Shown here: positions 10,721 to 64,000 of the stretch, one piece after another | Numbering within the stretch: position 1 is the stretch's first letter | Layout of the letters: each line of letters opens with the position of its first letter | Origin: Eremomyces bilateralis CBS 781.70 | Lineage: Eukaryota | Assembly: GCA_010015585.1 (NCBI GenBank) | Contig: ML975158.1 | Strand: one strand, 5' to 3' | Length of the DNA: 64,000 nt | Program-made: the position numbers and the translations under genes | Notes under the pieces: model-generated | The model's input: the letters and a program-made list of their open reading frames with translations, nothing else | Database searches by the model: none | Told to the model about the DNA's origin: nothing

Positions 10721-12609
10721 GATGCCGACGTCGTTCGACCGAAACGAAACAAAATGGTGGGTGAACTCGCAGGATGGGTAAAATGGCAGCTATGAAAGGA
10801 ATGTGGGTCGATCAACGTCGAGTTGACGGTGACGATAGAGGAGGTGACGGAAGCAGAGGAGAGGGGGGACGGAGGGAGATGAAGATTGAAATTGATGATG
10901 GCGAGGTGGATTTGAAGGATAGCGGTTGGGATGGAGTATGGACTGATGGGAGGGTTTATTAGTTTATTACGGGAGACGGATGATTGGGAGATGCGTAGCG
11001 TGACAACGAGTGCTCGGCCTGTGCAGGGGCGCAGTAAGCCGATTGCTAGGCGCTTTTAGTTACCGTATTCCAGTATTACCGGTACCACTGTCAGGATTAC
11101 AACCCTGAAGCCCCTGGAGTTCCTCCTCCAAAATCCTTCTAAGCTCTGGCCCTGGACGCCACCGGTGTTTTTCCGGTTCAGCCCAGCGGGGTGTGAAATT
11201 GGTCCTAATATTTAGGGATCTTGGAATTGGCCAGTGGTCACATCTCCTCGGAAATCAGCGCTGACTAACTTAACTTAGAGTAGCTGCTAATGGAACGAGC
11301 AGGTCTCTAAACCACAGCTTGAAATTATCTCCTCGAAGGATCCACCTTGCTCCGGTGGTGCCGGATATCAAGTCGATCTTCTACTTCGGCTACGATGCTT
11401 TCCCGGGGAATTACTCCACACATGATCTCATGGCCGATAAGAATTGTACGATATTAGGTACCAACCACCATATCGTAATTGATCTCCTCGCAGTTCTCCG
11501 CCGCTGCGCCGCATCACTATCAAGTGAGTATCGGAATACCTCACCCAACATACCCTTACATGGCGAAGATATACTCCATACAGCTTCTCATGATATCATC
11601 GACTGCATCGAACGCTGGCTGTGCGATGATCTCTTCCCGTCGGCCATGAACCCATCGTTGCTCCAGTCATCTCGCGTCATACCGCCCGATCGTTCCCTCT
11701 GATCTTGTGCTCCGAACTCCGAAGGTATGAACTCCCAAATATGTCTCGGGTACCAACACCATGATATCCCGCTGGGGAGCAAGCTGGAGCGGTCCATATA
11801 CCGTGCCTTTCGCTAGAGCCTGCAGGTTCGTAATTTTGCTTCAGACTCCGACACCTTCGTGCAGCGTCAATATCGAAAAGCAGGTGTTGTCGAAATCATT
11901 GAATGGTTGGAACTTGGAAGACATTCAAATCGTGTTCCCCTTTCGTAGGTACGCTTTGTACCTGGATACAGCGTACCGTTGCACCTTATGACCCTGTTAC
12001 ACTACGGTCACCAAACAGTGTCCCTTGCTCCAACCTGAACAGCGCGATAACGGTTCGTAATGAGTGAGTGATTCTTCAAAGTCCGTGTGAGACACCAGAA
12101 CCTTCGCCATTTATGATCGTCTTCTTGCTGAATAAGAGTAACTTTCGATGGACGATGGTTAGCGTGGCTATTACTGGAGCACTAGCGTACCATACTCGTA
12201 GGTCATCAGATCCATCAGGTGGTTGTCTAAAATTAGAGTAGTGTCCTGCGGCCTGCAAGGATCAAGTTTCATTACAGTGGAGGCATTCATTGCAGGGCGG
12301 AGTGGTCAGACAACTTCGGTTTGTTGTTTAGCCGATTGATATCCACGGACTACAATTGTAACAGATCAGGTTTATCTTTATTTCATCGTACTACCTATCA
12401 TAAGTTGAAAATATACTATAGAGAATTGGAACAGGACTCGTGAGACACGACAAACACTAACCCTCGGCTGTAACCAAATAACGTGAACTGGGATATATAC
12501 TGATTCGCGTGCTTGCAATAGCGGGCATCCATATCTTAACTGAGAAATGGTCGAAAATCAGTCCCTGGCATCATTAACGAGCTTCCGACCAAAACTCCAT
12601 CTTAAAACC

Positions 12610-14704
12610 TCATCCCAGGGCACAGAGGACCCCGATGACGATCAAAAAATAATGCCACCCGCTAACTCCCATCATCTGCCTCCTAGCCGCTCCCGTCGCG
12701 CTCGCACTCTTCGACGCAGCCGCCACAGCCGCCGCACTAACACTTGCCACGATCGACTCTTCCGCCTTCGCAGCCACGCTCGTCGCTGCAATCAGCGCCC
12801 CCACCTCCGTATCGAATGCAAGACACCGCGTCGGCAGCGGCACGGCCGTATCAAACAGCGACACGGCCGTATTGAACTCCGGCAGCTGCCGCACGCCGAT
12901 GCTCGCCCCTAAGGCAAACGCCAGCTCCAGCTCCGACTCGAATGATGGCGCGATATGCGTCATATTTCCCACGATTCCTGCCACGAGATCCGGGATGTTC
13001 GCCGAATCGTTCGCGTCGAGCGTCTGCGTCTGTGTGCCGAGGAGTCGGGGCGCGGCTAGCGGTGCGCAAGAGGCGTCGAAGGCGGCGGTGGAGCGGGAGG
13101 AGAAGGAGGCGTTGAAGGCGGGGAGGTCGAGGCCGAGGGAGAGGACGGCCTTGATGCGGTTTTGGAGGAGCTGGAAGCCGAGGTCGATTTTGGGCTTGAA
13201 GGAGAGTTGGAGGCTGAAGTCGCTGCCGGTGGTAAGGTTGGAGGTGAAGGGGAGGGCGTCGACGGTCACGTCACTTCTGGAGGTGGGTCAGCGGCTGTTC
13301 GGTTCATTCATGCCGGTTTCTGATGCGTGACTTACAATCCGACGCTGGATGAATTGGTCAGATTCGCCAGGTCAATGAAGACCCCGGAGTCATAGGGCGC
13401 CTGGTCAATGTCAACACCAAAGTCTACCAGTAGGCTTGAAGCACCTGCTTACTCTAACGTCAAATCCGAAGGAAAAATTCAGGCTCAGCTCAGTCTCCCA
13501 GCTTACAATTAGCTCGGGGGCCACGGTCAGTCCAGCAACACCCAAACCCGGTATCTTCGTGGACCGTTAGTATGACCATCAAAACCAGAAGAGGCTTGGT
13601 ACGCACGTTAAACCCGAAGACGGGATATTTAAACAGAGTAAAAGGAATCGCTCCATTAGCTCCGATCTCTCCTTGCAGTTCAATATGCGCACCGAACCCA
13701 AGAAGTCGGAGCTCAATCGACCCCGACTCCAGCAACGAAGCGGAATCAGTTTCGTTGTCGGGCAGATCGAAGTTTCCGAGCTCGAACTCTCCCTGCCTAA
13801 GCTCTAGGAGTCCTGTTGTGGTGCAGTCCTTGCATCCGATGGAGACAGGAACATCGGCTAGCCCCACCGGGATCTCGAGATTGGAATCCATTATGGAATT
13901 GGTTAGGTTGACGGTCTGCTGGTTCGAATTGGGTCTTCCGGAAGGCAGAGGTACCGCTATCACGGAGGAGCTGCTAGATGTCGGTAGCGTATTTTGGCGT
14001 CGGCGTAAATCTCTAGTCCTCGTAATGTAGTGAGATGGATTACTTTGGCTGATTGAGATATGGATCGATTGAAACGATTCGGCCCAGTCCGCTTCGGAGA
14101 CATGGAGAGTAGCGGAGTTGGCGTCGCTCATTATATCCAACCCCTCGACCCTATATAGCTTAGCAACGTTTCTTTAGCTCATGCAGTGCGTCAAGACTTA
14201 CCTGTAGATACCCCTTTCTCCATCTTCATTACAGCTATGATGCGCAGTAATGGCGAATGATCCGCGAACGCCTTCCAACACTTCCCGAGCTTGAGAGAGG
14301 ATATCATTTGATCGAAAGGTTAAAATCAGTTGCGAGCTGGTGCAATCGACCCCTGTGAGCAAATGCTCGATCTCTTCGATAGCCAGGACTGGTTTCTCAT
14401 GTTTAACACTAACTGTAGAGATAAATACAGTCTCGCGGGTTGGGTTATCTGTGAAATGTTCGTTATGTCCGAATTTTCACCGGAATTTGCTGGATGGGTT
14501 CATACCTTCACAGTATGAGAGCGTCAGTCTCGCTCCAGCAGTGATCTCTTCATTTCTTCTTAGCAGATCAGATCTCTTCGATGCTGCTCTCAGTGTGACA
14601 GCTGGTATACCGTCCAAGACATCAAGCCTGGCAGTGGAAGCACTTGCTGACACGACTTGCGCCAAAAGGTGTAGTCCGATATATAAATTACTCATAGGCA
14701 ACAT
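12610..14704 (-). CDS. Secreted, probably GPI-anchored cell-surface protein, multi-exon
   Basis: N-terminal signal-like segment; HHSCNEDGERGIYR|VEG exon junction in frame; IGCKDCTTTG motif; Ala/Ser-rich stalk and hydrophobic C-terminus (WHYFLIVIGVLCALG). Confidence 0.75.
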
Positions 14705-16031
14705 TGCAAGTTCATAGACATCCCCTATCGCAGGGAGGATGTACTTCGAATGAGGAACAAGACATGCAAGACAAATTGGAACAAAACCCTTCCATATTAT
14801 GGCTTGGACAATGCAATAACTTATGGGAAATTCAATGGGGGCACAGAGATTGGTCACCCTCGAGTTGGATATCCTGAAGGAGGACCTTTCGAGGGTAACC
14901 TCGCCCCTGCATACAAGGACTGCTAGGTCCTGAAGGCCGAAGTAGATATGCAAGCCAGCTGCACAACTTGACACACTTTCGAGGAAATTATCGTACGCTA
15001 AACTGGAGCAATGATCAAGGACTTGGACTGAATTGTGAGCGAACATTCAGCTTCAAGCCGGAGACCCTGACAGGCCGTCCCATCGTGATGGGTTAGGGCA
15101 AGGATCCTTCACCATCTGAAACACTTCGCCGCAACACGCCATGTTGGAATACGAAAAGCACTCTTTCGCTGAATAAGGCATGATGAGACCCTGGATGAAC
15201 CGGTCTACCGGGAGTGTGTCCCCTATGAAAATCCCATTGCGAAGCGCCTTATAGAACAGGCATGGTGCTTGAACAGCGTGATGCTCATGAAGATGTAAAC
15301 TACGATTGACTTACAGGGGTAGGTGGTTCTCTCCAATACCATATCGCTGAAAGCCGGACGAAAGTAGATATAGCGATACGATGAAATAAACCGTCATCCT
15401 TTGCCATGTAGTTCATATAGCCAACATGACCTCGACCAAACTCAAGGCTGTCGTGAATCGTTCACAGCGTTAACGAGAGGCACTCCACTCTCATGTACCC
15501 CGAATGGTCGTGCCGAGACAACTGCGATTATGCATGCAGAACGATGCAATATATTGCGGCGAGTGACTGCGGGGTGGCGCATTTCATCATTCATAGGAGT
15601 TGAGTTGAGAGAGTAGTACAGTTCAAAGTTTAAGAGGTTCAAAGGAAACCGCGGCGGCAAGCAAGCGAGAAACATTGGCATCCAGCAAAGATAATAAACG
15701 CTTTCCTGTGGTTCGCATAAATCTTGTCGCAGAGTTGATAACACAAGACAACTGGTGCGCGATATTAGACTTTAAGTAACTCGCTTATAGCGTTGAAGTA
15801 TCAGTTGCGGCGACGTCGCAGAATGTTTCGTGGCTATCAAGGAACCGTTCAATCCTCGCTCAAGGCAAATTTCAAGGGCACAATCGATGCGAAATGCAAT
15901 GAAATGAGGAAGGAGACTAATGAAACCTTAATTTGACTCGAAATAGGCCGAATTAAGGACGGAAACTAGGGTATACTGTTTTGACTGCGGACCATTTTAT
16001 AGACAAAAATGCGTAAAAAAACTTTATTGAC

Positions 16032-16125
16032 GGCGACTTGGCCGAGTGGTTATGGCGCTAGTTTCAGGTGACTCAGTTACTTACTAGTTTCGAAAGATTC
16101 CGGGGTTCGAGTCCCCGAGTCGTCA
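16032..16125 (+). tRNA. tRNA-Leu(CAG) with canonical 13-nt intron (16069-16081)
   Basis: Acceptor GGCGACT/AGTCGTC-A, A box TGGCCGAGTGG, anticodon stem CTAGT/ACTAG with loop TT-CAG-G, long variable arm, T arm CGGGG-TTCGAGT-CCCCG, T-run terminator. Confidence 0.92.
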
Positions 16126-16352
16126 TTAATTTTTGCTCTTTTTACCTTCATTGAAGGTTTGATTTTTGCTTGAGGATGATTTCCAGAAATTTACCAAATG
16201 ATGTGATGATTTTTGGGGGTGTTGTGCGCTGCTTCAAATTTGAGGCCAGCACAGTCGCATAGAATGCATGCCTTGCTTTGAAATATTTCAAACCGAAGGA
16301 AATGACATCAAAATATCAACTAGGCATAGCAAACACATAGTTAACTAACTTA

Positions 16353-16378
16353 GTTAACTTAAGTTAACTTAAGTTAAC
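16353..16378. repeat. 26-bp perfect palindrome built from a (GTTAACTTAA)n tandem repeat
   Basis: gttaacttaagttaacttaagttaac equals its own reverse complement. Confidence 0.9.
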
Positions 16379-16599
16379 AGGAGGATAGTAGTACTACGGT
16401 GTAAAGAAACGCTTGATCATCTGTCATTCCTATTATAGGAAATGCCCAATACTCTCTCGACTGTGTACACCAAATAGTCGTGCAAATTGTTGAGGTATCT
16501 CCACATGAATTTGCAAAGAATGATCGATCATGTAGTGTAGACCAAAGTTAAAATTGCCATAAATTTGAAATTGCCGACTACTTCAAGAATATTGCAAAT

Positions 16600-16752
16600 G
16601 GCAAGGTGGCCGAGTGGTTAAGGCGCTGTGTTTAGGCTTTGCAATTAGTCAAAACCGCAGTGGGAAACCGTAAGCCTACCCAATTAAAATCTACTCAAAA
16701 TATCACAACTAACAGCTCCCCTCAGTCGCGAGTTCGAATCTCGTCCTTGTCA
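16600..16752 (+). tRNA. tRNA-Leu(UAG) with canonical 18-nt intron (16637-16654) plus a 56-nt spliceosomal-type intron in the variable arm (16670-16725)
   Basis: Acceptor GGCAAGG/CCTTGTC-A, A box, anticodon stem CTGTG/CGCAG with loop TT-TAG-G, variable arm TGGGAAACC|TC, T arm GCGAG-TTCGAAT-CTCGT, T8 terminator. Confidence 0.88.
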
Positions 16753-17416
16753 ATTTTTTTTCATTTTTCATTTTTCATTTTTCATTTTTCATTTTTTTAT
16801 TTTGAGAAATACTACTTCTTTCTCATGGAGTACTTTGAAGCCAGATTCAGCTTTATAGGATCGGGTTTGGTGGAGTTATGGGCACTGGTGATAGGTATGG
16901 CAGCAGAGGAGGATAACCATACTCCAATAGCCTGAATCTCAGCAAAGACCTACATACACTTCATACTTCATAAATTTAAAATACTGGTCCCATAGAAGCA
17001 AGCATCTAGTGATATTGAGGTAAGGCGAATTTTCTGTCATGAAAGTAAAGCATTGTAATATGCTGGGTGCATGTGCCGTCCTGGACTTAATTTTATCATC
17101 CAAGTCGAAGCAATTCTCTTGCCAAGAACAAGTCCAGCCAATTTCTTTAGCTAGTAAGTTTGCTAGCCATCCCTTAGGGAATCAATGCCTTAATTCATGG
17201 CTTGTCATTCCGGTATGAAGAAGACTAGGTCTAAAACCATACACACTCTTTTGCTGATGGCACAATGTCCATGGCACGCTGACTGAAGTTTTCTCATCGT
17301 TCTCACTATAATTCCATTGCCACTCCTTACTCGATGATCAAGTCTTGTGCCAATCTTCCTCCTTCTTTACCCCATCTCAAACCCTGTATTATTCCCCTCC
17401 TTCGCGGTCTCACCAC

Positions 17417-18142
17417 CTAAAGCACCTTCCGAAGGCAGAACCTCCTCTCCTGATCCGTCCTCCTCCCTACCTTCGGATGCCCCCGCTTCCTGATCCTCAT
17501 CGTCTTGGTCCCTCGCCTCCACTCGAGGATCCGCCCTTGGGGCACCTTGATGAAGCACGTTGGAAGCGTGTCGTACTGCTCCAGGAGGAATTTCAGCTCC
17601 ACAGGTATCTTGTTTGGGTTGATCCCTTCCACCTCGATCCATTTGGGCTGGCCGGGCGGGAACCGGTGGGTGGGGACGAAGTAGCTGGTGGTGTGCTGGG
17701 GTTTGGTGGTGGGCTGGGGGCTCGTGGCCTGCTTGGGGCTTGTAGTCTGCTGGGGAGACAAAGAGTAGTCGGAGGAGTCGACTGGATCAGACCCGGCAGC
17801 AATGGGGGATGATGGAACGTAATCCGAACATTGGAAAGAGATGCAGGGATTGTACGGGATAGTCGACTCGGGGAAAGCTTGAATTGGCCGTTCTGGAAAG
17901 GGCGCATCGAGGGCAGATGATAGAGGTAGGGAAGGTCGAATATCGAGGGAGGAGTCGGGAACCGCTGAATTATTATTAGTTCATGAACTCAAAGTCATTC
18001 GAATGGATACGTACGTGGAAGGTCCAATTCATCGGGGGTGGGGGAATCGCCGGCAAAGGTGGAGCTCACATCTGCGGAATATCAGTCAGTCAATCGTTCA
18101 GGAGGAGTCCATTAATGGTGGACCTATTCGTACTTCGGTCAT
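17417..18142 (-). CDS. Hypothetical Pro/Ser-rich protein, about 3 exons
   Basis: Exons MTEVRI|DVSSTFAGDSPTPDELDLP|PVPDSS... join in frame to ORF 17417-17761 across two GT-AG introns with branch sites; no known domain. Confidence 0.4.
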
Positions 18143-18638
18143 GGTATCTCCATCGAACTTGAGGGGTGTCTGTCCTCACCACTGGCGGCGAGGAACTAGA
18201 GGTATATTCCTCCTCTGGTTGAATGTTAGTTACGAAAATCAGTGCTGGAAGTCGTGAGAGTTATGACATACCCTTAATCGGTGTGACCTTAGATTTCCTT
18301 GGGCGGCCGATCGGCCTTCCAGTTGGCTTTCGACCCATCTTAACTGTAATTACACAGATGCCTTTGAATGGATTCACAACTGACTACAAAATCTTTCACG
18401 CCTTGAATGATGCTAAAAGATAATCGGGAGGATAAGTGGATCACGAGTGATGGTATGGTCGGAAGGTGAAGATTGAAGGATGAGTGAAGGTATAATCCGA
18501 AGGTGAATGTCGAAATGGGGCGGACGGAGAAAGACCTTGGAGTAAGATGAAAAGTGACGGAACAATTCACTTCATGCGAAATAGCACGCGAGTCGATCCG
18601 TGAAATTGATCTAGTGACCATCACATGCCTTGACCTGC

Positions 18639-20045
18639 TCATGTGGATGAATGAAGCAGACTCTGTCTTTCACCTCTCCTATCCATAGGTGATGATGGTC
18701 GTCGAATCGCTATGCTGGGTGCGTTTCTTTGCTGCTGCCATCGTTCCCACCGTACTTTTCCTTTCAAGCCCAGATGCCAGAGAACACCCGCGGCGAACCC
18801 CACGGCATCGTTGCCAAAGGCGAGCATACCCGCGACGGTGGCAAGCATCACATTCCACCGCTCCATCCGCTCAGATCCAGTGTATTCAGCCGCTTTCCGG
18901 GACTCACCCAGTCCTGTACGACCGCTCGCCTGGTCGACCTGCCAGTTATCCGACATCCCCTCGTTCAAGCTCGCGGCGACTTTCGCTAGCTCGATGCCAG
19001 CAACGATGACCATGATTCCGAGGAGGCCTTTCGGGAACGTTTGCAACAAGTCAACCAGGCCCTCGCCCACAAACAAGCCGAGAACAAGCTTTAATAGACC
19101 GAGAACAATGACGCTGGCGCCGGATCGAGCGCCGAATCGATGCTGACCAGCAAGCCCGCCTGAGCCATGACAAGCGGGCATTCCGCCAAAGGGACAGGAT
19201 ATCAAATTGAGGACTGCGATGGAGATGCCGATCTCATGCACACTTGGGGCTGGGATCGAGGGGAGGAGATGGGAGCTCAGATGAGCGGTCGCAATGATGG
19301 AGTTCAGCACCGTCAACGGCAGCTGGGCAAGAGCAGAGTAGAACCCAGTCAACACAGTCTCCTTCTCAAAGCTTGCATGTACATGAGGATGCCAGATATG
19401 AAAACCATAATCGCCGTCCGGAGGAAGGGTGAGATGCAAGAAAGCAATTATGAGGCCGACAATGAATAGAATCAGTGCATATGGGATACGCACCATCATC
19501 GATGATATGATCAGAAAAATGAAAGCTGCAATCACCCAGATTAGGTTGTCGGTCAACGAAGGATGGATCCATCCCAGGGACTTCAGAAGGGACGACCCAG
19601 CTGCGATCACGAGCCGTAGTCCGGCGCCCATTTGAATGCCTTTGACAATCGGAATCGGCACGACTCGAGCAAACCAGGTAAGGAGTCCCGTAATGCTCAG
19701 TAGCCCAACGACAGCCGAGACGATTAGGCCCGAGGCGGTGGTCTCGGCTTTCGAGAAGCGGTTTGATATGGCGATGGCAGCGATCGCCTTCATGGGTTGA
19801 ACGGGTAACGGGACGCCGAATAGGACTCCGGTTGCGATGTTGGCGAGGCCGGTGAAGACGAGGGTCGTGGGGAGAGATATTGAATGATTCATTGTGAGAG
19901 CAGTCATCAGGGGTAGCAAAGTCCCCAAATCTCCTAACGCTCCGGAGAGCTCTCGGAGGGGTTGGGAGCGGAGGGTCTGCCAGTTGTACCGATTGATGGA
20001 GAGAATGTCATGTCGCCGGAACACTGGCTGTCCGTCGGTTTCCAT
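18639..20045 (-). CDS. Molybdate transporter (MOT1 family)
   Basis: ELSGALGDLGTLLP, PLPVQPMKAIAA, FGGMPACHGSGGLAGQHRFGARSG; likely start METDGQ at 20045. Confidence 0.9.
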   Translation of the reverse strand: METDGQPVFRRHDILSINRYNWQTLRSQPLRELSGALGDLGTLLPLMTALTMNHSISLPTTLVFTGLANIATGVLFGVPLPVQPMKAIAAIAISNRFSKAETTASGLIVSAVVGLLSITGLLTWFARVVPIPIVKGIQMGAGLRLVIAAGSSLLKSLGWIHPSLTDNLIWVIAAFIFLIISSMMVRIPYALILFIVGLIIAFLHLTLPPDGDYGFHIWHPHVHASFEKETVLTGFYSALAQLPLTVLNSIIATAHLSSHLLPSIPAPSVHEIGISIAVLNLISCPFGGMPACHGSGGLAGQHRFGARSGASVIVLGLLKLVLGLFVGEGLVDLLQTFPKGLLGIMVIVAGIELAKVAASLNEGMSDNWQVDQASGRTGLGESRKAAEYTGSERMERWNVMLATVAGMLAFGNDAVGFAAGVLWHLGLKGKVRWERWQQQRNAPSIAIRRPSSPMDRRGERQSLLHSST

Positions 20046-20524
20046 CTTTAACGATACTAGGAATAGTTTGTTTATTGAGAGGTCGTTGATTGATATGGCG
20101 GAGATGAAGTTGGATGCGTCCACCGGTAAACGTGGGATTGAAGTGATAAGGTTCCACGCAATGGATGAGCTAACGCAGCTGCCGATCGGCAAGAGGTCTG
20201 GTACCAGAGCACGAGCGCATAAGAGATTTATGAATCAGAGGCCTAATTGACTCCAAAAGTTATTCAAACCAGGATATTTCTAACAATAATTCTCGCATGA
20301 CCACTTTGAATGGCTATTTCTATTGCAGGGTCAATGGTCTCCTATCAAGTCAAGGATTCAGGGGCCGCAAAGCAACCACTATAGCAGTATGATAGTGTAG
20401 AGTGTGATCCATAAAGCGTAAATATGTGCAGGTATAGTACATTGATATTTGTACACGCGCTGTAGATGGGCGAATCTGTTGCATAGAGGAAAACCGATAG
20501 TTTTCTCGATAAACCAGCTTCCGG

Positions 20525-21327
20525 TCAAAGTCGCTCACTGACCCAAATCGCACCGCGACATCCGGCTCTAATCACACCCGTAAGCAGCTCATACGGCTTC
20601 GCTTCCTTCGCATCATGCTCGAGTGCATGGTCTAAATGTTCCAGCTCCTCATCCCGTATTCGTCGGACCGTCGCCAAAAGGTCCTTCATATCCTGCGACG
20701 GTTCTTGCCCTTTGGCTGCCAACTCCTTCTCCCACTCCAAAAGGTTTCGCACCTGATCGTTATAATGTTCGCCTATCTCCGTCTCTACCGCCTCCGTACA
20801 TGCCATGGCTGCTTCCCTTCCCATCATCGCCGTGCTCCAGCCGAGGGCCGTGGCTGCCACGGTCCAGACGGGGTACATGGCCGTTGGTCGGATACGATGT
20901 TTGGTGAGGAGGTGGCTGAAGGTTTTGAAATGTCCAGCTTCTTGATCGTACATATGCTTCATGAGAGATCGAAGATGGGGATGTGCGCGGACTATCGGGG
21001 GTGTTTGGGCGCCATAGATCAGGATCGCGGCTAGTTCACCGGCATGATTGACTCGTAGCTGCATTACATCAGTATCATGGTCAAAAGTAGGAGGTGGATG
21101 TCCTATACTGCGCTGTCTAGAAATTCCTTCTGCTCCTTGCTGAGCTCCGGAGCTGGACTTTGCCTTTCGGGTGACGTTGGCGATGTTGATGAGACATTTG
21201 AGGACAAATACCTAGACCCACCACAATGGGCTAGATATCGATTATATGAACCCCCATGCTGAAGGCCTGTACGCCTATGCAACCCTTCACAACGGGAAAG
21301 GAAACCTTGTGCAGCCGGGCGAGACAT
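20525..21327 (-). CDS. COQ7: 5-demethoxyubiquinone hydroxylase COQ7/CAT5, 2 exons
   Basis: FLDSA|LRVNHAGELAA, EAAMACTEAVETEIGEHYNDQ, IRDEELEHLDH di-iron motifs; presequence-like N-terminus. Confidence 0.95.
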
Positions 21328-25670: not shown

Positions 25671-27535
25671 ATGGGCGTCGAAGTCACAGAACCAACTAGC
25701 GCGCAGCTCCGTGCCGAGTTGGCGTACAAAAACCGATGGCGGACTCTTTGGAATAATCCGAAGATTATCTTCATTGCCTTTTTCGCTTCGTATGCATCCC
25801 GATTTCCCTTTGATTGTCCGTGTTGCTGACTCTCTTCCAGCTTTGGTGGTTTTGAATATGGCTACCAGCAGGGTGTCCTCGGCCAGTCTTTGGTCATGAC
25901 CAAGTTCGTGGACAATTTCCCGTCCATCGTGAATTCGCCCGGTGCAACAGGGTGGTTGACTTCTATCCTTCAACTGGGTGGTATTCTGGGTTCGCTTACC
26001 GCCGGTATCTTCGGCGAGGTTTTCTCACGGAAGTATACCATGTTCTCTGCCTGTTGCTGGGTGATCCTTGGTAGCTACCTGTATATTGGTGCTACTTACC
26101 ACAATCCGGCAATGCTTTACGCTGGTCGGTTCTTCACCGGTGTGGGTGTAGGAACCTTCAGTGGTGTTGGGTAAGCTGACTCAAGACGTGTACGATGTTC
26201 CTCGCTCATTATTGATAGGCCACTCTACAACGCTGAAATCGCTGCCCCCGAGCTTCGTGGTCTCCTGGTATCATTCTACCAGTTCGCCACGATCTTGGGT
26301 ATCATGTTGTCCTTCTGGATTGGCTATGGCGCCAACTACATTGGCGGCACCGGTGAAGGGCAGACAAACCTGGCGTGGATGCTCCCCTCCATCATCCAAG
26401 GTATTCCTGCCGTCCTCCTTGCGCTCGGTATATGGTGGCTTCCATTCTCCCCTCGTTGGCTGGTCAAACAAGGACGGGATGAGGAGGCGTTAAACACCAT
26501 CTCATACCTCCGCAAGCTTCCCATTGATGACGAGCTCGTCCAAATTGAGTTCAAGGAAATCAGAGCCGAGCGCATCTTCGAGCAGCGGAACTTCACTAAG
26601 AAGTTCCCTAGCCTGGCTGAGAAGGGTTCGAACGTCTTCGTCCGCGAGTTCGCTCAATATTGGGATATCGTCCGAACGTGGGACAACTTCAAGCGCGTGT
26701 CCACGGCGTGGCTGGTCATGTTCTTCCAGCAGTGGTCAGGAATCGACGCCATCATCTAGTGAGTCCTCATACAAATCACCTTTCTTGAATCAATCTAACC
26801 ATGATTCTAGCTACGCAGCTCAAGTCTTCCAAAGCCTCGGCTTGACTGGCGGGACCACGGCGCTGCTTGCCACCGGTGTGACCGGCGTCGTCTTCCTCGT
26901 CAGCACTCTGCCCGCAATGGTCATCATTGACAAAGTCGGACGAAAGCCCATGCTGCTCGTCGGTTCCGTGGTGATGCTGGTCTCCATGGTCCTTGCCGGA
27001 ATCATCGTCGCAAAGTGCCAACATGATTGGGTCGCCAACAAGGTCGCGGGTTGGGTCGCGGTGGCCTTCATTTGGGTTTATGTCGGTGCATTTGGTGCCA
27101 CTTGGGGACCTGTCTCTTGGACGTTGGTTTCGGAGATCTTCCCTCTGTCGATTCGATCGAAGGGTGCTTCCATCGGTGCCTCCAGCAACTGGGTGTGTAT
27201 CTCTTCTCTGATTCTCGTATCGCCTTACTAACTGAGGCCAGCTCAACAACTTTGCCGTCGCCTTCTACGTTCCCCCTATGTTCGAAACTTTGGAGTGGGG
27301 TACCTACATCTTCTTCGCCGGTTTCCTTGCTGCTGGTATCGCCTGGGTGTTCTTCTACCTTCCTGAAACTAAAGGTGCCACTCTCGAAGAGATGGACCGG
27401 GTATTTGGCAGCAAGGTTGGTGCGGAGGATGCAATTCTCCTTGCCGAAGCACGGCAAGAAGTTGGCTTGAACGCCTCCGTTGAGAACATTGCGATTGAAT
27501 CCATCAGCGAGAAGATGTCTGGAGGAAAAGTCTAG
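25671..27535 (+). CDS. MFS sugar porter (LAT-1/LatA-like pentose or polyol transporter), 5 exons
   Basis: FGGFEYGYQQGVLGQ, LYNAEIAAPELRG, LPFSPRWL, FFQQWSGIDAIIYY, WGPVSWTLVSEIFP, PETKG; four canonical introns. Confidence 0.9.
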
Positions 27536-28266
27536 CTTGTAACTATAGACAAATAATAATCAGTGAAGTCCTTCGGCATTGACCCGTTGAACTTAAAAGA
27601 TCATCAAAGATCATTTCAAATTGTCCTCACCTCATGCGTATATTGTGGTTTCTTCTAAATTAGCGGTGAAATAAGCCTATTCTAAATCCCGCTTTCTATA
27701 GGCACGAAATATCCATATACAATCCACTGCGATTGACCACAGTCCCCACCAGTCGCGAATTCAGCCTACAGATTAGGCTATCATGAAAGAAACACTGCTT
27801 CCGGCCTTCAGCCGCCCTGCAGGACTCGAAATCTCGAACGCCAAATTTCGTACGCGCAAGGGGGTAAATCCTTCAAAACCGCTAACCATTAGCCGCTACC
27901 CTCCCATAGAGGCCTGGACGGCCATCTAACGGGGCTCGCCTTCTGTCATCGGGAACTGGGGCTTCGCATCGGCGCATCCCGATCATTTCAACCAAAAAAT
28001 AATGGGAAATCCGGTTCAATGCCGGGTAGGGATGCCGAAATGCCTCTAGGTACCTTAGCGCTGCGTCGGCTGGGGATGGGGTCAGTGGATACCGATACGA
28101 CTAAGTCATCGGCCGGGGAAGAAATTTTCTTTTGTTGTGAACCTGAATGCTGGGAATAGGATTTTATGCCGACAGTTATATCCCGGTCTTTGCGTCAGGC
28201 TGCTTATGGCGATCCGCCACATGGATTTACCAGGGGACCGAATTTTCAGAGGTTGGGGAGGTGACA

Positions 28267-28527
28267 TGTGAGATAAATAGCGGTTTCGCTCATTCGGATA
28301 ATTAATGCAGCGACACGGTGGGAAAACCCCGTTAGATTCCAAAAGAGCGTAGATAGATTGAACTTGATCCTGAAGAGCCGGGTCCTACGAAAACAGGCTG
28401 TTCCTGCAGCTATTTTATATGGTTTACAATGGTGATCTATTCCTTAAAAGGGAAAGAATAGGAGTATAGAATCGAATACGGAATGAAGCCGTGGGGAAAC
28501 GCCAAGAAATACAGATATTCTGTGACA
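28267..28527. mobile_element. Solo LTR, copy 1 (261 bp)
   Basis: TGT...ACA termini; near-identical to 55914-56177. Confidence 0.8.
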
Positions 28528-32962: not shown

Positions 32963-33045
32963 GGGCCCAACCGCGAATTGAACGCGGGACCTCCTGCAAT
33001 TAAGCTAAGCCCAAAGCAGGAATCATACGACTAGACCATTAGGCC
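32963..33045 (-). tRNA. tRNA-Pro(UGG) with canonical 11-nt intron
   Basis: Minus strand reads GGCCTAA TG GTCTAGTCGTATGATT CCTGC TT-TGG-G [intron] T GCAGG AGGTC CCGCG TTCAATT CGCGG TTGGGCC C. Confidence 0.92.
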
Positions 33046-55680: not shown

Positions 55681-55913
55681 AGGTAGGGGCCCCGATTTCT
55701 GACCACCCCACACACATTCTGACCATCTCAAATGGGAATATTCGTTCCTAGATAATTAGCCAAATTGAACAATGCAAAAAATTTCAAGCACGATGTATTT
55801 GTGATTACTACGCCTCGCATAAATGGAGAAGCAATTTCTCAAGCTATTGAAGCTTTCAGAAACCAAAAATACCCATCAATCCATAAATGCGCGGAGGCCT
55901 ACCGCCTAAACTA
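55681..55913 (+). mobile_element. 5' remnant of a pogo/Fot1-like DNA transposon, truncated at a solo LTR
   Basis: Doubled TTCTGACCA motif at the putative end; frame from 55810 reads (T)PRINGEAISQAIEAFRNQKYPSIHKCAEAYRLNY, resembling a transposase N-terminal HTH with ATG changed to ACG. Confidence 0.6.
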
Positions 55914-56177
55914 TGTGAGATAAATAGCGGTTTCGCTCAATCAGGCGATTAATGCAACGACACGGTGGGAAAACCCCGTTAGATTCCAAAAGAGCGTAGA
56001 TGGATTGAACTTGATCCTGAAGAGCCGGATCCTACGAAAACAGGCTGTTCCTGCAGCTATTTTATATGGTTTACAATGGCGATCTATTCCCTATATAAAG
56101 GGAAAGAATAGGGGTGTATAATCGAATGCGGAATGAAGCCGTGGGGAAACGCCAAGAAACACAGATATTCTGTGACA
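55914..56177. mobile_element. Solo LTR, copy 2 (264 bp)
   Basis: TGT...ACA termini; near-identical to 28267-28527. Confidence 0.8.
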
Positions 56178-63748: not shown

Positions 63749-64000
63749 ATGCCCATCCAAATATTGCCTCCGGCTCCGGCTATCTCGCTTGGGAATGAAG
63801 GGGCCCAGGCGGTCGACATTGATGACGAGGGAGATGTCGATATGGGAGGATTATCGTTGAAGACCGCCCTTGAATCCCACGCCGCAATTGTCACCCCTGG
63901 GGAGGTTATCACAGATGATCCACAATGGATGCGGTAAGCAGGGCTCTGGAACCGTTGCGCGACATGCATTTCCAAATATTCGTGCTGATCATCTTGGATA
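63749..64000 (+). CDS. RRP4: Exosome subunit RRP4, first exon and start of intron 1 (runs off the window)
   Basis: IVTPGEVITDDPQWMR followed by a GTAAGC donor at 63934. Confidence 0.85.

Follow-up and report, generated by a model that had tools for sequence, protein, structure and literature searches.

Introns of the spliceosomal kind are not confined to messenger RNAs. According to the accessible text of PMC5855946, the genes for U6 snRNA carry mRNA-type introns in Schizosaccharomyces pombe and in numerous other fungi (Tani and Ohshima 1989, 1991; Canzler et al. 2016, cited therein). The same text describes the interior of the U6 introns as unconserved and gives reverse splicing as their proposed origin. 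As U6 is a Pol III transcript, the view that Pol II transcripts are the sole substrates of the spliceosome has a counter-example. In its available part, this source also lists spliceosomal introns in the U1, U2 and U5 snRNA genes of Rhodotorula and in ascomycete nuclear rRNA genes (Takahashi et al. 1993, 1996; Bhattacharya et al. 2000, as cited there). Since GT-AG introns are thus found in Pol I transcripts, the action of the spliceosome extends beyond Pol II mRNAs.

The introns of tRNA genes are usually treated as another subject. Textbooks and the reviews consulted separate spliceosomal introns from the tRNA introns that are cut by an endonuclease (PMC12530127; PMC4090602, each in its accessible part). 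In its available text, a 2025 paper (PMC12530127) presents the introns of tRNAs and those of the spliceosomal kind as having no relation to each other, and the word stem 'spliceosom' is absent from the accessible portion of a tRNA-intron review (PMC4090602). That portion describes canonical nuclear tRNA introns, at position 37/38, as removed by the SEN endonuclease through a ruler mechanism. In Cyanidioschyzon merolae and in archaea, tRNA genes can be interrupted repeatedly, carry introns outside 37/38 and are missed by ordinary finders (available parts of PMC3728597 and PMC4090602). The ectopic introns in these organisms are described there as cut by the endonuclease and defined by a bulge-helix-bulge (BHB), a motif with one or two 3-nt bulges, a 4-bp helix between them and flanking helices of more than 2 bp (PMC3728597, accessible text).

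We analysed a window of 64,000 nucleotides from contig ML975158.1 of Eremomyces bilateralis CBS 781.70 (assembly GCA_010015585.1). On its plus strand, at 16600-16752, lies a Pol III-style tRNA-Leu(UAG) gene that is interrupted twice. Intron 1 is a normal tRNA intron of 18 nt (16637-16654) at the canonical 37/38 position. The second interruption, insert 2, is a spliceosomal-type intron sequence of 56 nt (16670-16725), located in the variable arm of the otherwise intact gene. The U6 cases described in the available text of PMC5855946 are the nearest known parallel; the likeness is that of a short intron with canonical splice and branch sites in a small, structured Pol III non-coding RNA gene. 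Unlike U6, however, the host here is a tRNA and no component of the spliceosome, and the insertion cannot be put down to proximity to the catalytic centre. Moreover, the tRNA-Leu(UAG) transcript would also need the tRNA endonuclease and ligase, and its splicing is predicted here from anatomy. The snRNA and rRNA introns share with insert 2 the GT-AG borders and a branch site within non-coding RNA genes, Pol I transcripts included; they differ in belonging to other polymerases and RNA classes, and, in the accessible part of PMC5855946, none of them is in a tRNA and none involves two splicing systems per molecule.

The comparison with tRNA introns is equally mixed. As judged from the accessible part of PMC4090602, intron 1 is an ordinary member of the canonical nuclear class. 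Insert 2, in contrast, is located in the variable arm, about 20 nt further along in the numbering of the mature tRNA, and exceeds the canonical introns found in the window (11, 13 and 18 nt) threefold in length. With the genes of C. merolae and archaea, as presented in the available parts of PMC3728597 and PMC4090602, the tRNA-Leu(UAG) gene shares the repeated interruption, the intron outside 37/38 and the escape from ordinary finders, but their ectopic introns are BHB-defined and endonuclease-cut, whereas insert 2 has no BHB and carries spliceosomal signals. The original prediction of this locus held that no spliceosomal intron in a tRNA is established, and our search agrees with it: open-access papers and bioRxiv yielded no description of a tRNA gene with a spliceosomal intron.

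The gene was recognized by one program and overlooked by another. On the unspliced DNA, the Rfam tRNA model RF00005 matched 16600-16752 on the plus strand over its whole length (model positions 1-71) with 39.9 bits, above the gathering score of 29; the E-value of this match was 6e-05 window-wide and 9.4e-07 locally. In the alignment, the large insert was left unaligned and the anticodon stem was marked as unpaired, because the model cannot place exon 2. ARAGORN in default mode called no tRNA in native 16600-16752. It had been suggested that standard finders would probably miss such genes, as ARAGORN in default mode did. We then made four constructs by coordinates and submitted each of them to ARAGORN: the native sequence, the sequence minus the 18 nt of intron 1, that minus the 56 nt of insert 2, and that minus both. 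Removal of 16637-16654 only gave no call. Removal of 16670-16725 only gave a wrong Lys call, which turned into Leu with an 18-nt intron when the intron option was used. When both segments were removed, the program called tRNA-Leu(tag), and this was the sole construct so called without further help. With its intron option, ARAGORN placed the 18-nt intron two bases earlier, which gives the anticodon TAA. The assignment of the anticodon as UAG rests on the canonical 37/38 rule, not on measurement.

The three exons account for a complete tRNA. Exon 1 (16600-16636), delimited by the sequence, the Rfam alignment and the base pairs, contains the 5' strand of the acceptor stem, the D arm, the 5' strand of the anticodon stem and the loop up to G37, with the anticodon TAG at 16633-16635. 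Exon 2 (16655-16669) is only 15 nt long; from pairing and folding, it consists of position 38, the 3' strand of the anticodon stem (CGCAG) and a variable hairpin T-GG-GAAA-CC. The anticodon stem between exons 1 and 2 is made of the pairs C-G, T-A, G-C, T-G and G-C. Exon 3 (16726-16752), again from sequence, Rfam alignment and pairs, provides the final two bases of the variable region (TC), the T arm, the 3' strand of the acceptor stem and the discriminator A. All of the 20 stem pairs checked in the spliced tRNA are standard, 17 being Watson-Crick and three G-U, and the conserved positions U8, A14, G18G19, U33, G37, the T-loop TTCGAAT and the discriminator A are present. The 79-nt product folds as a cloverleaf without constraint (-26.5 kcal/mol). 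Altogether, the original prediction of a tRNA-Leu(UAG) with paired stems, A and B boxes, discriminator A and a T8 run, of a first insert at 37/38, and of a 79-nt tRNA upon exact removal of the segment from GT to AG is confirmed at the coordinates given here by the Rfam score, by the anticodon-loop helix of intron 1 in the fold, and by the ARAGORN Leu(tag) call and unconstrained cloverleaf of the sequence spliced in silico.

The same locus has the layout of a Pol III transcription unit. An A box, TGGCCGAGTGG, was read from the sequence at 16607-16617, and a B box, AGTTCGAATCT, at 16731-16741. The distance between the two boxes, about 125 nt, is stretched by both inserts; stretched distances of this size are tolerated by Pol III. 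Directly 3' of the discriminator, one A is followed by eight T residues (16754-16761), and T runs are the termination signal of Pol III. From its sequence, the gene is thus predicted to be a Pol III unit, with A box, B box and oligo-T terminator all in place. Leucine identity depends on a long variable arm and on the discriminator A73. A73 is present; the spliced variable region is 11 nt long, with a GG-GAAA-CC hairpin whose stem has 2-3 bp, compared with 13 nt in the paralogue tRNA-Leu(CAG).

This paralogue (16032-16125, plus strand) was used as the in-window reference for exon homology. It sits 475 nt upstream of tRNA-Leu(UAG), in tandem on the same strand, matches Rfam with 46.3 bits, and, by ARAGORN with introns allowed, contains a 13-nt canonical intron and no second insert. 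In the alignment of the two genes, a GAAA-capped hairpin is also found in tRNA-Leu(CAG) at the place that exon 2 provides for the variable arm. The variable arm predicted after splicing is short, but it is built like that of the paralogue. In default mode, ARAGORN ignored this intron and, as an artefact, labelled tRNA-Leu(CAG) 'tRNA-???' and gave it an anticodon of four bases (cagg).

The window contains one further tRNA gene, an intact-looking tRNA-Pro(UGG) at 32963-33045 on the minus strand, with an 11-nt canonical intron as found by the intron option of ARAGORN. This gene gave no Rfam match at the gathering score, nor at E-values up to 10, and its D loop has AGTCGT in place of the expected G18G19. 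The introns of tRNA-Leu(CAG) and tRNA-Pro(UGG), 13 and 11 nt long, occupy the same 37/38 place as intron 1, which pairs with the anticodon loop in the predicted fold of the pre-tRNA. A motif scan of the window for further split tRNAs found an A box paired with a B box in the three known tRNA genes only.

Insert 2 reads as an intron of the mRNA type, on the basis of its sequence, the constructs, the folds and motif statistics. It begins with the donor GTAAGC (16670-16675), which fits the local consensus GTRNGY, carries ACTAAC as its branch site at 16708-16713, the branch A (16712) being 13 nt from the end of the intron, and finishes with a 3' splice site CAG (16723-16725). The sole earlier AG after the branch point comes 2-3 nt past the branch A; an AG so close behind the branch A is skipped in splicing. 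To place these signals in their genomic background, we collected GT..AG candidates that join open reading frames and then hand-picked the 19 best-framed ones. Because this set was pre-filtered with the same motifs, its likeness to insert 2 is partly built in. The 19 mRNA introns have a median length of 54 nt and range from 46 to 105 nt, insert 2 being 56 nt long. Their donors are GTGAGT, GTAAGT, GTATGT, GTGAGC, GTATGC, GTAAGC and similar sequences, and their branch motifs, CTAAC, CTGAC, CTGAT and CTAAT, lie 7-24 nt from the YAG. GTAAGC itself is the donor of the mRNA intron at 13445-13506 and of a supported one at 26171, which is 48 nt long and joins open frames of 113 and 179 codons. The other mRNA donor named earlier, at 63934, is situated close to the end of the window. 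These data agree with the earlier claims that the insert displays GTAAGC, ACTAAC and CAG at these positions, that the hexamer also serves as an mRNA donor at 26171, and that the insert has the length of the mRNA introns, the latter in comparison with a hand-picked, motif-filtered set. Measured against this same selected set, insert 2 appears as a wholly typical intron for the organism, which, judged by these intron features, resembles a filamentous ascomycete.

We also estimated how often such an arrangement would arise by chance. A loose intron pattern was found in 3 of the 127,888 56-mers of the window (both strands), and a strict pattern requiring CTAAC in a single one, insert 2 itself. When the borders were shifted within +/-4 nt, one of the 81 combinations fitted, and this combination has the borders that restore the tRNA. 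In a composition model, the modelled joint probability per placement is about 2e-5 for the loose pattern and about 2e-6 for the strict one. Even allowing for the freedom of the variable arm, chance is not a credible explanation for the signals of insert 2. The insert follows the variable hairpin, with 2 nt separating it from the T stem, and hence lies outside the canonical 37/38 position.

The composition of insert 2 is unusual. It is A/C-rich, with 7% G and 21% T, and its G content is the lowest of the 20 introns compared, the mRNA introns ranging from 12 to 33%; three of its four G's are those of the splice signals. This low G content keeps the insert from pairing with the body of the tRNA and is perhaps an adaptation, for which this is a single example. 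The longest T run in the insert is 2, and Pol III would therefore not stop inside it; TTTT is present in 7 of the 19 mRNA introns. As evidence for compatibility with Pol III, the avoidance of T runs was rejected, since it is not significant: 12 of the 19 mRNA introns lack TTTT and 7 have no run longer than 2. No copy of insert 2 was found elsewhere in the window, the best other match being 11 nt long, and an interpretation of the insert as a repeat or mobile element was ruled out, as it is unique in the window. By self-BLAST, the only long repeat of the window is a dispersed pair at 28266-28527 and 55913-56177, of about 265 bp and 93% identity.

Both leucine tRNA genes are located in a spacer of low GC content (36-43%, approximately 15800-17300), in which no stop-to-stop frame of more than 99 codons was found. 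A frame of exactly 99 codons (16636-16935) overlaps the tRNA gene and scored 16.2 bits against a Pfam cut-off of 23.7. As no frame exceeds 99 codons and the Pfam score is below threshold, insert 2 is not the intron of an overlapping protein gene. This candidate explanation was rejected also in view of the flanking frames, which have only 33 and 43 codons. The insert was itself picked up by the ORF-joining intron scan, as a segment joining these two frames. Because it joins short open frames, gene predictors could mis-annotate a spurious spliced ORF over the tRNA. Immediately downstream of the T8 run, at about 16762-16806 on the plus strand, a T-rich heptamer (TTTTTCA-like) is repeated in a short tandem array, in effect a back-up row of oligo-T. 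As for codon use, 13 long ORFs contain 686 leucine codons, of which 64 are CTA; the codon is used, and the cell therefore needs a CUA decoder.

How should the second interruption be understood? The anatomy as a whole supports a U2-type spliceosomal intron inside tRNA-Leu(UAG), a reading that would fit it fully, and we find it somewhat more probable than the contrary that the spliceosome removes insert 2 and that the gene is functional. The main rival, which we regard as rather unlikely but serious, is that the spliceosomal-intron sequence was inserted in one copy of a multi-copy tRNA-Leu(UAG), for instance by reverse splicing and retro-recombination, and is not removed. The gene would then be a young pseudogene, and other copies would supply tRNA-Leu(UAG). 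The failure of a standard finder (ARAGORN default) to see the gene and its short spliced variable arm of 11 nt are compatible with such a disabled copy, and nothing in one window dates the insertion. The exons, however, are without decay, since the 20 stem pairs are all standard and the universal positions are intact, and the terminator is intact, as are the canonical intron and its helix. The G content of insert 2, the lowest of 20 introns, also looks fitted to a tRNA context, although this is a weak argument. Could the endonuclease remove the insert instead, the GT..AG borders and the branch motif being coincidental? Nuclear tRNA introns outside 37/38 do exist in C. merolae, and most ectopic introns of the Guillardia nucleomorph cannot form a BHB either (PMC3728597; PMC4090602, in their accessible parts). 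At this locus, by contrast, no helix joins the ends of insert 2, whether the fold is free or constrained to the cloverleaf, and an ad hoc scan of 16 registers gave at best two of the four central-helix pairs. As no BHB was formed at the borders of insert 2 in the folds or in the 16-register scan, the endonuclease-type alternative fails the structural test. It would moreover require the triple coincidence of splice signals, at about 2e-5 per placement, in a window whose other tRNA introns are short and canonical, and we consider it very improbable.

A different partition of the same sequence has to be weighed as well. With its intron option, ARAGORN reports on the native sequence a tRNA at 16599-16753 with the anticodon TTA, which would read the stop codon UAA; this amounts to one canonical intron of 75 nt (16636-16710) that SEN alone would remove. 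This solution offers a perfect alternative anticodon stem of 5 bp (GCTGT/ACAGC), and the folding energy of its product is similar (-27.3 versus -26.5 kcal/mol). Folding energy was uninformative for separating the two-intron and one-intron readings, with -26.5 and -27.3 kcal/mol and shuffle z-scores of -0.5 and -1.2, respectively. The single intron, on the other hand, needs G32, loses position 26, leaves a variable region of 11 nt unpaired and produces a stop-codon anticodon, and the minimum-energy fold of its product is not a cloverleaf. It also turns the tRNA-like exon 2 and a complete set of splice signals into accidents. We counted for the two-intron reading the fact that exon 2 gives exactly the 3' strand of the anticodon stem and the GAAA hairpin. 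The single long intron is accordingly given hardly any weight. Equally little is given to the idea that the insert is kept, either in a mature tRNA-like RNA with a 67-nt variable region or in a tRNA carried as a passenger in a longer Pol II transcript. Giant variable arms are known in some tRNA-like RNAs, but the variable region together with insert 2 folds at only -3.4 kcal/mol, the insert being nearly unstructured, unlike real long variable arms. Both the T8 run directly behind the discriminator and the A and B boxes, which are intact, point to a unit transcribed by Pol III, and retention leaves the splice signals unexplained. Taken together, the endonuclease, single-intron and retained-insert readings retain a minor share of the overall probability.

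Returning to the preferred reading, in which two introns are removed by two splicing systems, the following scenario may be proposed. Pol III would transcribe the gene from its internal A and B boxes and stop at T8, as the gene anatomy suggests. The SEN endonuclease and the tRNA ligase would remove the 18-nt intron at 37/38, as indicated by its position and by the helix between anticodon and intron. The spliceosome would excise the 56-nt insert from the variable arm, with U1 binding to GUAAGC, and U2 and the branch-point factors to ACUAAC, whose branch A is at 16712. The 3' splice site would be the first AG that can be used, which lies 13 nt beyond this A. Joining of the sequence ending in GGGAAACC to the one starting with TCGCGAG would then yield a class II tRNA of 79 nt. 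As to its origin, we speculate that the insert may have arisen as proposed for U6, a free intron being reverse-spliced into the RNA, which would then have been reverse-transcribed and recombined with the gene. The claim made for this locus rests on anatomy, from which we infer that the gene is transcribed, spliced and functional, as well as the order in which its two introns are removed. No precedent was found in open-access papers and bioRxiv for a spliceosome acting on a pre-tRNA that is made by Pol III, uncapped and tightly folded.

Relatives of the gene were sought in three collections with a pattern built on exon 1, in which the anticodon stem was left free and the D arm was fixed, the pattern being narrow for this reason. 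Among metagenome contigs, this narrow pattern retrieved a single locus, an unrelated intron-less tRNA-Leu(UAG); prokaryote genome contigs and viral contigs gave no match with it. The contig that carries the unrelated gene (L001, 1-721) is a dense cluster: its 721 bp contain six Rfam matches to tRNAs on a single strand, the intron-less tRNA-Leu(UAG) included. The search of public sequencing runs for 12500-21000 gave one run of uncertain kind, with 0.67 of the words, and no RNA run.

What would such a gene mean for the fungus and its relatives? With somewhat less than even confidence, we suggest that it is a working CUA decoder, possibly the only one of the genome, that needs both the spliceosome and the tRNA endonuclease, and that it is one of a class distributed across filamentous fungi. 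If this is true, uncapped and tightly folded Pol III transcripts would form a new class of spliceosome substrate, and the U6 snRNA precedent would be extended to the translation apparatus. The occurrence of mRNA-type introns in small non-coding RNA genes would now include a tRNA, in combination with a tRNA intron, and the locus would offer a natural setting in which to test the gain of introns through reverse splicing into abundant RNAs. Annotation of the tRNAscan and ARAGORN types would under-count tRNA genes in such fungi, and tRNA genes that are 'missing' from fungal annotations would be explained. Finally, the capacity for translation would be coupled to the capacity for pre-mRNA splicing.
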